A stretch of DNA of 64,000 nucleotides from Thermodesulfobacteriota bacterium (GCA_965205855.1 OZ242184.1:704001-768000), one strand, 5' to 3'; shown: positions 8 to 189, counted from the stretch's first letter. The notes: generated by a model from the sequence alone, not told the origin. Made by a program: numbers and translations.

Positions 8-13
8 TGTCAA
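8..13 (-). promoter_or_regulatory. Perfect -35 hexamer TTGACA abutting the left att arm
   Basis: Minus strand reads ...GGGA-TTGACA-AAGTCCG at the window edge. Confidence 0.5.
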
Positions 14-189
14 TCCCTTTTTTTTCCATTCTCTTTTTCACTCTCTTTTTTCCATTCTCTGGCGAGTGCTCTAATGATCGCTTTGATGACCGCTTTCGTA
101 ATTCTGAAAATGCCCCATCCTACGAGGATTATTATGCCTACGTATAATACGAGTGTAATTATCTCAATAGGGTTTTGGTTGTTCTCCAT
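10..189 (-). CDS. 59-aa single-pass membrane protein, candidate lysis protein (not in ORF track)
   Basis: My translation: MENNQNPIEIITLVLYVGIIILVGWGIFRITKAVIKAIIRALAREWKKESEKENGKKRD*. ATG directly follows the H stop (TAA-ATG). TM helix, basic amphipathic helix and charged tail. Confidence 0.75.
   Translation of the reverse strand: MENNQNPIEIITLVLYVGIIILVGWGIFRITKAVIKAIIRALAREWKKESEKENGKKRD

Follow-up and report, generated by a model that had tools for sequence, protein, structure and literature searches.

We identified ORF59 (positions 10..189, minus strand), an orphan gene for a 59-aa protein, as the last gene of a novel microvirus, temperate and pequenovirus-like, that is integrated in the chromosome of a Thermodesulfobacteriota bacterium. 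Positions refer to the window, the whole 64,000-nucleotide stretch of DNA that was analyzed (GCA_965205855.1 OZ242184.1:704001-768000), which corresponds to G000:C1:704001-768000 of a closed 1.40-Mb genome. ORF59 is a genuine, non-random gene of the phage that is translationally coupled to the gene before it, and its product is predicted from the sequence to be a bitopic membrane peptide with a single helix. We tentatively favor this peptide as a candidate for the lysis effector of the phage, of the single-gene-lysis (Sgl) or "protein antibiotic" type, a role that we regard as quite possible.

The prophage and its integration site

Between positions 10 and 5848, the ORFs are all encoded on the minus strand and together make up a microvirus gene set. 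The major capsid protein F (3597..5258 (-), 553 aa) matched Pfam Phage_F (1.6e-17) and phrog_514, and the A-like replication initiator (Rep; 777..2138 (-), 453 aa) matched Pfam PF23343 (4.4e-8) and phrog_713 (5.9e-20). A D-like external scaffolding protein (2225..2713 (-), 162 aa) matched phrog_1386 (1.9e-10); its match to Pfam gpD (1.4e-3) stayed under the cut-off, and it shares 29% identity with a protein of pequenovirus KP087957. An external scaffold is given as a hallmark of the branch that contains Bullavirinae and pequenoviruses in the consulted part of PMC9239249. The matches of the capsid to Phage_F and of the scaffold to phrog_1386, together with the identity to the pequenovirus protein, place the element in this D-scaffold branch (Suborder I).

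A highly charged 133-aa ORF without a family match (883..1284 (-)) is overprinted in Rep and, judged by position, may be a B-like internal scaffold, comparable to phiX B within A. A small coiled-coil-like ORF (2706..2948 (-)) is listed with a TTG start at 3074 and probably begins with MNLETV at 2948. In the place of spike G, a 214-aa ORF (2953..3597 (-)) follows F as G does and had no family match. Two ORFs lie upstream of F. ORF67 (5280..5483 (-)) encodes a 67-aa lipoprotein-type precursor with a marginal match to phrog_14979 (E=9.5e-4); a signal peptide with the lipobox LAGC is followed by a 37-aa mature part, which is highly charged and has no TM segment, and the gene is preceded by the strong Shine-Dalgarno sequence AAGGAGG. 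ORF112 (also ORF112/113; 5483..5821 (-)) is a mostly beta orphan and the first gene past attP in the circular form. It was listed as a 122-aa ORF whose first ATG lies inside the dif-like repeat (5839-5848), but the likely start is MMEEIQ at 5821, behind the strong Shine-Dalgarno sequence GGAGGAAAGG, and the version in the protein database has 112 aa. No match to ORF112 was found among hydrolase families (Pfam, PHROGs and NCBIfam) or solved structures, and its AlphaFold2 model was unusable (pLDDT 44.5). For the seven phage ORFs without an assigned function, nothing relevant was found in NCBIfam or PADLOC.

The gene directly upstream of ORF59 encodes a candidate H-like pilot protein (190..777 (-), 195 aa). 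Its N-terminus is hydrophobic and rich in Gly, its middle part is rich in Q, and it contains an SPWDWAG motif; the ATG of the gene overlaps the Rep stop (TAATG). BLASTP aligned its N-terminal ~90 residues with H-like proteins of the pequenoviruses KP087947 (199 aa; E=2e-4) and KP087957 (E=1e-3), and a match to the pilot protein of Vibrio phage PG19 was also obtained (E=0.022). Pfam and PHROGs contained no match to the 195-aa protein. The label H used in the initial annotation is weakly supported by the pequenovirus alignments.

The phage has few detectable relatives. Among 5.8 billion clustered proteins, the capsid had one relative, P0003 (53% identity, on a 6,699-nt contig), and phage records yielded only partial matches at <31% identity, from pequenoviruses, Vibrio microviruses and Ciona-associated microviruses. 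Searches of viral, metagenome and genome contig collections with the capsid or with the two-sequence capsid alignment returned nothing, and a search of 60 related genomes did not find the capsid either.

The prophage is 5,860 nt long and spans window 1-5865 plus 21 nt to the left (G000:C1:703979-709865). It is bounded by 27-nt dif-like repeats, AAGTTAACATAATATAACTTA[C/T]CGGAC, whose starts lie 5,860 nt apart. The left copy (AAGTTAACATAATATAACTTACCGGAC) begins at G000:C1:703979, 21 nt left of the window, and ends in window 1..5; the right copy (5839..5865; AAGTTAACATAATATAACTTATCGGAC) agrees with it at 26 of the 27 positions, and its T-arm is the version found in congeners. These two copies are the only ones in the host genome at up to five mismatches. 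All five same-genus genomes carry exactly one copy (up to three mismatches), located in each case between recF and HIT homologues without phage DNA, and the prophage likewise lies between recF and a HIT gene. In two closed congeners the site is found at ~55-57% of the chromosome; the cumulative GC skew of the host genome was too irregular to locate the terminus. Because the site is single, conserved and near mid-chromosome in the closed congeners, we assigned it to the dif type, a likeness that we take from comparison with the E. coli dif sequence. No integrase was found among the phage genes, and the host carries three tyrosine recombinase genes elsewhere in its genome. Given a phage without an integrase, host recombinases and a single dif-like site, the microvirus was presumably integrated at the dif-type site by the Xer recombinases of the host.

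This mode of integration has precedents in other microviruses. Gokushovirus and Alpavirinae prophages integrate at dif through host XerC/D, and the element described here resembles them in lacking an integrase and in lying between dif-like repeats at the single dif-type site of its host. In contrast to those prophages, it is a D-scaffold, pequenovirus-like virus, and its host presumably belongs to a different phylum from theirs.

ORF59, attP, ORF112 and ORF67 follow one another without interruption in the circular genome. Window 8-13 and the left repeat (L007 984-1013, minus) together contain a promoter-like match, TTGACA-18 nt-TATGTT (10/12), with its -35 element over the ORF59 stop and its -10 element within the dif-like site. 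The copy that precedes ORF112 in the integrated prophage retains the -10 element and lacks the -35 element, so a complete promoter for ORF112-ORF67-F would be present only in the circular form. Over the whole scan, promoter and terminator matches were about as frequent as expected by chance: 10 promoter-like sites were found where 11.7 were expected, and 9 terminator-like sites where 7.1 were expected. Rfam gave nothing in the region and, elsewhere, a single 21-bit snoRNA-like chance match.

Gene structure and predicted protein of ORF59

The initial annotation had described an ORF just under the track cutoff that was coupled to the H stop, and the ORF and its coupling were confirmed. The ORF was found at 10..189 on the minus strand with an ATG start, and the 59-aa protein (MENNQNPIEIITLVLYVGIIILVGWGIFRITKAVIKAIIRALAREWKKESEKENGKKRD) is the same as the sequence quoted there. 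Its ATG directly follows the TAA stop of the 195-aa ORF (192-190) without a spacer (TAAATG), and ORF59 shares its reading frame with that upstream ORF (190..777). At the other end, 4 nt separate the TGA stop from the left dif-like repeat. The phage genome is compact, with genes chained through TAATG, ATGA and TAAATG junctions (here Rep-TAATG-H-TAAATG-ORF59), and ORF59 occupies the entire gap between the H-like stop and attP. No Shine-Dalgarno sequence was found before ORF59 (upstream sequence AATAAAAAAAATTAA; GGAAAGG occurs no nearer than about -21 to -27), unlike ORF112, ORF67 and F, all of which are preceded by strong ones.

The coding strand of ORF59 contains 42% A. When the body of ORF59 was shuffled by mononucleotides (n=20,000), 1.0% of the shuffles stayed open, and none reached a best 19-residue Kyte-Doolittle mean of at least 2.62, the value of ORF59. 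Because shuffles rarely open and none is as hydrophobic, we conclude that chance does not account for ORF59. With a codon model trained on the remaining phage genes, frame 0 of ORF59 scored 1.7 bits, compared with -35.6 and -27.8 bits for the other sense frames. The training genes scored far higher (15.2 +/- 5.9 bits), and 6.8 bits were reached in one antisense frame; codon usage by itself is therefore not decisive for ORF59. The strand opposite ORF59 is likewise open.

An 18-nt direct repeat (CTTTTTTTTCCATTCTCT / CTCTTTTTTCCATTCTCT; 26 nt spacing, window 17-60, L001 1517-1560) lies beneath the final ~13 codons of ORF59, which read it in two frames (REWKKE / KENGKK). This arrangement suggests low constraint on the tail of the protein. 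Either the tail originated by duplication, or the repeat is a DNA-level element beside attP.

The proposed arrangement of a TM helix, a basic amphipathic helix and a charged tail was borne out by the calculated properties of the protein. An acidic N-terminus (residues 1-9, net charge -2) precedes a predicted TM helix (residues 10-28, IITLVLYVGIIILVGWGIF), which is free of charged residues and holds the best 19-residue Kyte-Doolittle mean of 2.62. A basic amphipathic helix follows (residues 29-48, net charge +6), with an 18-residue hydrophobic moment of 0.55-0.72 over residues 27-46, and the protein ends in a mixed-charge tail (residues 49-59, net charge 0). AlphaFold2 run without an alignment modeled a single helix over residues 7-57 (mean pLDDT 84.5).

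Relatives of ORF59 and a co-occurring genotype

We searched for relatives of ORF59 at the level of sequence, profile and predicted structure. A word-indexed protein search and an exhaustive phmmer search over 1.84 billion representatives each returned only ORF59 itself, and tblastn against 50,697 phage records gave no match at E<=10. No Pfam family matched at E<=0.01, and the only PHROGs match was marginal (phrog_6131, "unknown function", E=0.0097). Solved chains of phage lysis proteins gave no match at E<=10, and no holin family profile in Pfam, PHROGs or NCBIfam matched ORF59. In the ESM Atlas the top scores were 0.84 (unnamed clusters) and 0.76 (AcrZ), both below the level that the tool treats as meaningful. 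Matches to SDR reductases (NCBIfam and PDB, E 0.015-0.5) were rejected as compositional matches of the amphipathic helix.

P0003, the distant capsid relative, likewise led to no detectable counterpart, and the positional analogues after H in Vibrio phage PG19 (60 aa) and KP087947 (75 aa) lack a TM segment, so a small TM gene after H is not conserved. Distant relatives carry non-homologous small membrane or envelope-directed ORFs at other positions (59 aa in KP087957 and 95 aa in KP087943), which fits a fast turnover of such genes. The ORF of KP087943 (1558-1845) is of the lipoprotein type (LSGC) and unrelated to ORF67.

The ORF in KP087957, AJK28216.1 (2343-2522), invites comparison, as pequenoviruses are the nearest named virus group to the ORF59 phage. 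Like ORF59, it is a stand-alone gene for 59 aa with one hydrophobic helix. It differs in its charge layout, which is reversed (basic N-terminus and acidic C-terminus), and in its location, which is between the D-like gene and F; when the phage collection that includes KP087957 was searched with ORF59 by tblastn, no match was obtained. With its J-like basic N-terminus, hydrophobic helix and acidic tail, AJK28216.1 is a possible membrane or lysis candidate of KP087957 in its own right.

Population data, which consisted of contigs only and came almost entirely from run X1 (99% of sampled words), revealed variation around attP. In this run, the 4,757-nt phage core had a depth of 541, compared with 315 for the right host flank, and two paths were resolved outside the core: the reference path at a depth of ~300-307 and a second path at ~250-263 (~0.8x host depth). 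The core of the second genotype is identical to the reference. The second path shows 21 differences in window 5630-5828, and window 5144-5516 is replaced. At the other end, a 410-nt contig links window -21..23 to window 341-417; window 24-340, which covers most of ORF59 and the C-terminus of the H-like protein, is replaced by unalignable sequence. In this contig 9 + 45 + 77 nt are aligned, and ~279 unaligned nucleotides stand in place of 317 reference letters. The altered segments around attP (L007 979-1417 and 6115-6828; window -21..417 and 5115..5828) correspond to the H-like C-terminus and ORF59 on one side and to the F N-terminus, ORF67 and the end of ORF112 on the other. At the left repeat, a single contig carries nine loose letters that equal the right end of the phage, as at a circular or tandem junction. 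This junction contig is probably the variant contig itself, with a bin depth of 42.3 that equals 250.7 x 45/267. These data demonstrate that a second genotype with an exchanged accessory segment co-occurs in the same sample.

Conservation of ORF59 in relatives, which the initial annotation had named as a check, was accordingly not observed: no homologue was found, and the segment is replaced in a co-occurring variant with an identical core. The reference sequence itself was recovered independently in contigs of X4, from a second study (L007 672-1192 and 1173-1574), which span the H-like stop and ORF59 and show 0 differences. The H-like TAA is therefore not an assembly error.

A candidate lysis function and its alternatives

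Of the 25 most hydrophobic prophage ORFs of at least 25 aa, 22 lie on the T-rich antisense strand, and the three on the coding (minus) strand are ORF59 (2.62), an in-frame stretch of the D-like gene (1.83) and the signal peptide of ORF67 (1.82). As the initial annotation had stated, no hydrophobic E-like ORF is overprinted in D, and none was found in an alternate frame of any other gene. Pfam and PHROGs detected no peptidase, lysozyme, holin or phiX E family in the 10 phage ORFs. No other ORF on the coding strand is strongly hydrophobic, and a lysin is not recognizable; ORF59 is therefore the leading lysis candidate. The earlier proposal of a stand-alone lysis gene thus stands with respect to anatomy, coupling and the lack of an E-like ORF or recognizable lysin, and the lysis role itself is that of a leading candidate by elimination. 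A holin of a holin-endolysin system would be expected beside an endolysin; none is adjacent to ORF59, and no muralytic domain was found in the 10 phage ORFs.

The features of ORF59 can be joined in the following mechanism. Ribosomes that end at the H-like TAA would restart at the adjoining ATG, so that the peptide would be made at low level alongside the structural genes. It would enter the inner membrane with its N-terminus out and its C-terminus in, a topology suggested by the acidic N-terminus and the +6 helix C-terminal to the membrane segment, and the amphipathic helix would rest on the cytoplasmic face. From inside the membrane, the peptide would stop the membrane step of lipid II supply, and growing cells would burst. 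The host has MraY (G000:C1 1304312-1305424), MurJ (G000:C1 1311797-1313362), LspA and Omp85, which indicates a diderm with a lipid II pathway, and a block of lipid II supply in such a cell would be lytic. MurJ and MraY, both present in the host, are candidate targets by precedent: small phages are known to block them with single-helix peptides of unrelated sequence (PMC13712586, PMC3394797, PMC7693330). A three-chain prediction that combined ORF59 with the MraY and MurJ of the host, made with 30-row host alignments and without controls, gave an ipSAE of 0.00 in both runs, a result that counts neither for nor against these targets. Coupling without a Shine-Dalgarno sequence should give low-level production with the late genes, as would befit a lysis timer more than an exclusion factor expressed in lysogens.

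The best-known counterpart in microviruses is the phiX174 lysis protein E (Bullavirinae; Pfam Microvir_lysis), a 91-aa protein that inhibits MraY with host SlyD and has an essential conserved Pro21 in its TM helix. ORF59 is likewise a small microvirus protein in which an N-terminal TM helix precedes a basic, predicted cytoplasmic part. However, ORF59 has no sequence match to the Microvir_lysis profile, it is a stand-alone, non-overlapping gene downstream of the H-like gene whereas E is overprinted in D, and its TM helix contains no proline, the sole proline being P7 before the helix. ORF59 was rejected as a member of the phiX E family on these three grounds. The two phages share the D-scaffold branch of Bullavirinae and pequenoviruses, as delimited in the consulted part of PMC9239249. 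In the part of PMC3394797 that bears on this point, phiX E is described as the only microvirus lysis mechanism worked out as of 2012.

Levivirus Sgl peptides offer a second comparison. LysM, SglPP7 and SglCJ3 are comparable to ORF59 in size and consist of a single TM helix and a tail, and, according to the consulted part of PMC13712586, these single-TM peptides are unrelated in sequence and converge on MurJ. Levivirus Sgl peptides are described as mutually dissimilar and as having evolved independently at different genome positions (consulted parts of PMC13712586 and PMC7693330). They come from RNA phages, and their activity and complexes are known from experiment, whereas ORF59 is known from its sequence alone; unlike the peptides as described, it also has a long basic amphipathic helix. 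ORF59 agrees with the size and TM definition used for Sgl candidates (at least 25 codons and a predicted TM domain) and lacks the Shine-Dalgarno sequence used in the same screening, both as stated in the consulted part of PMC7693330; functional Sgl genes without a ribosome-binding site are also reported there (PMC7693330). In the counts given in that part of the source, 33 of 293 Sgl candidates were functional in E. coli and 178 of 293, all with a predicted TM domain, had no effect (PMC7693330), so a TM domain alone is a weak predictor of lysis.

Several other explanations of ORF59 have to be weighed. It is possible, although somewhat unlikely, that ORF59 is a non-lytic membrane accessory, either an inner-membrane superinfection-exclusion protein that blocks incoming microvirus DNA or a modulator of burst size like phiX K, a small, hydrophobic, non-essential protein. 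The phage is temperate and integrated at dif, the gene lies at the prophage end by the attachment site, a frequent place of accessory genes, and an orphan in a segment exchanged among genotypes looks like a gene under diversifying selection. Yet ORF59 lacks its own promoter and Shine-Dalgarno sequence, and its coupling to a structural gene means that it would be made in lytic growth rather than in lysogens; the phage would then be without a lysis gene, and ORF67, an outer-membrane-targeted lipoprotein with exclusion analogues in T5 Llp and phi80 Cor, would be the more conventional exclusion candidate. Lysis might instead be brought about by the neighbors, with ORF59 a helper at most: ORF67 could act like a bacteriocin-release lipoprotein, in the manner of colicin lysis proteins, which are small lipoproteins, or ORF59-attP-ORF112-ORF67 could form a cassette with several parts, namely a membrane protein, a putative enzyme and an outer-membrane lipoprotein. 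The three orphan genes adjoin in the circular genome and their module is the part that differs between the X1 genotypes; ORF112 and ORF67 have the strongest Shine-Dalgarno sequences in the phage, ORF67 has its LAGC lipobox and 37-aa mature part in a host with LspA and Omp85, and pequenovirus KP087943 also has a stand-alone lipoprotein-type ORF. We nevertheless consider such an arrangement unlikely, as ORF112 matched no hydrolase family or structure and its model is unusable, mature ORF67 is highly charged without a TM segment, and no lipoprotein lysis gene was found in the consulted portions of the microvirus and levivirus literature.

The shared frame raises the question of whether ORF59 represents a C-terminal membrane module of the pilot protein, either detached or reached by read-through, serving the virion or DNA delivery and not lysis. 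Only one TAA separates the two ORFs, relatives mostly have longer H-like proteins (257, 268 and 346 aa), and that of KP087957 (257 aa) ends in a hydrophobic segment and then a basic amphipathic tail, a similar layout. This explanation appears improbable to us, because the best-aligning H-like protein, from KP087947, has 199 aa without such a tail, which makes 195 aa a full length; the H-like protein of KP087957 showed no BLASTP match to ORF59 at E<=100, the TAA is identical in the X4 contigs, and an ATG right behind the stop fits re-initiation. ORF59 could also be an untranslated, attP-proximal stretch of repeats and promoter that is open by accident. It has no Shine-Dalgarno sequence and no homologues, its codon-model score lies below those of the training genes and of one antisense frame, its 3' end overlaps the direct repeats and the promoter-like match, and the opposite strand is open too. 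Against these points stand the shuffles of this A-rich strand, of which so few stayed open and none of the 20,000 gave a comparable hydrophobic helix, the ordered succession of TM helix, amphipathic helix and charged tail, and an ATG that adjoins the upstream stop in a gene that exactly fills its gap; we regard an untranslated ORF59 as very improbable.

Lysis remains the function that we tentatively favor for ORF59. Its orphan status, the replacement of its segment in the co-occurring genotype and the lack of a Shine-Dalgarno sequence all speak against this role, as does the presence of ORF67 as a rival candidate for lysis or exclusion. In addition, ORF112 could be a cryptic enzyme, given that its model was unusable (pLDDT 44.5), and a read-through fusion of H and ORF59 is conceivable, as the two are in the same frame. 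A more specific scenario may also be considered. ORF59 would be a recently born lysis peptide whose tail stems from the 26-nt-spaced duplication in two frames, it would kill a diderm host, from a phylum that has no cultured members, at an envelope step other than those of MraY, MurJ and MurA, and it would belong to a swappable module, ORF59-attP-ORF112-ORF67, exchanged by recombination among co-occurring phages, in which the promoter of the downstream genes is complete only in the excised circle. As a joint proposal, this scenario is a long shot.

Single-gene lysis peptides are natural "protein antibiotics" that mark weak spots of cell-wall synthesis. Beyond phiX174, the consulted portions of the microvirus literature name only accessory lysis genes of the peptidase type. 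As a stand-alone and easily synthesized gene, ORF59 provides a direct test case. It belongs to a temperate D-scaffold microvirus whose bacterial host lineage is poorly known, and its neighbors are two further orphan genes that are envelope-directed. The prophage also extends dif-site lysogeny of microviruses to a pequenovirus-like lineage and to a new group of hosts.
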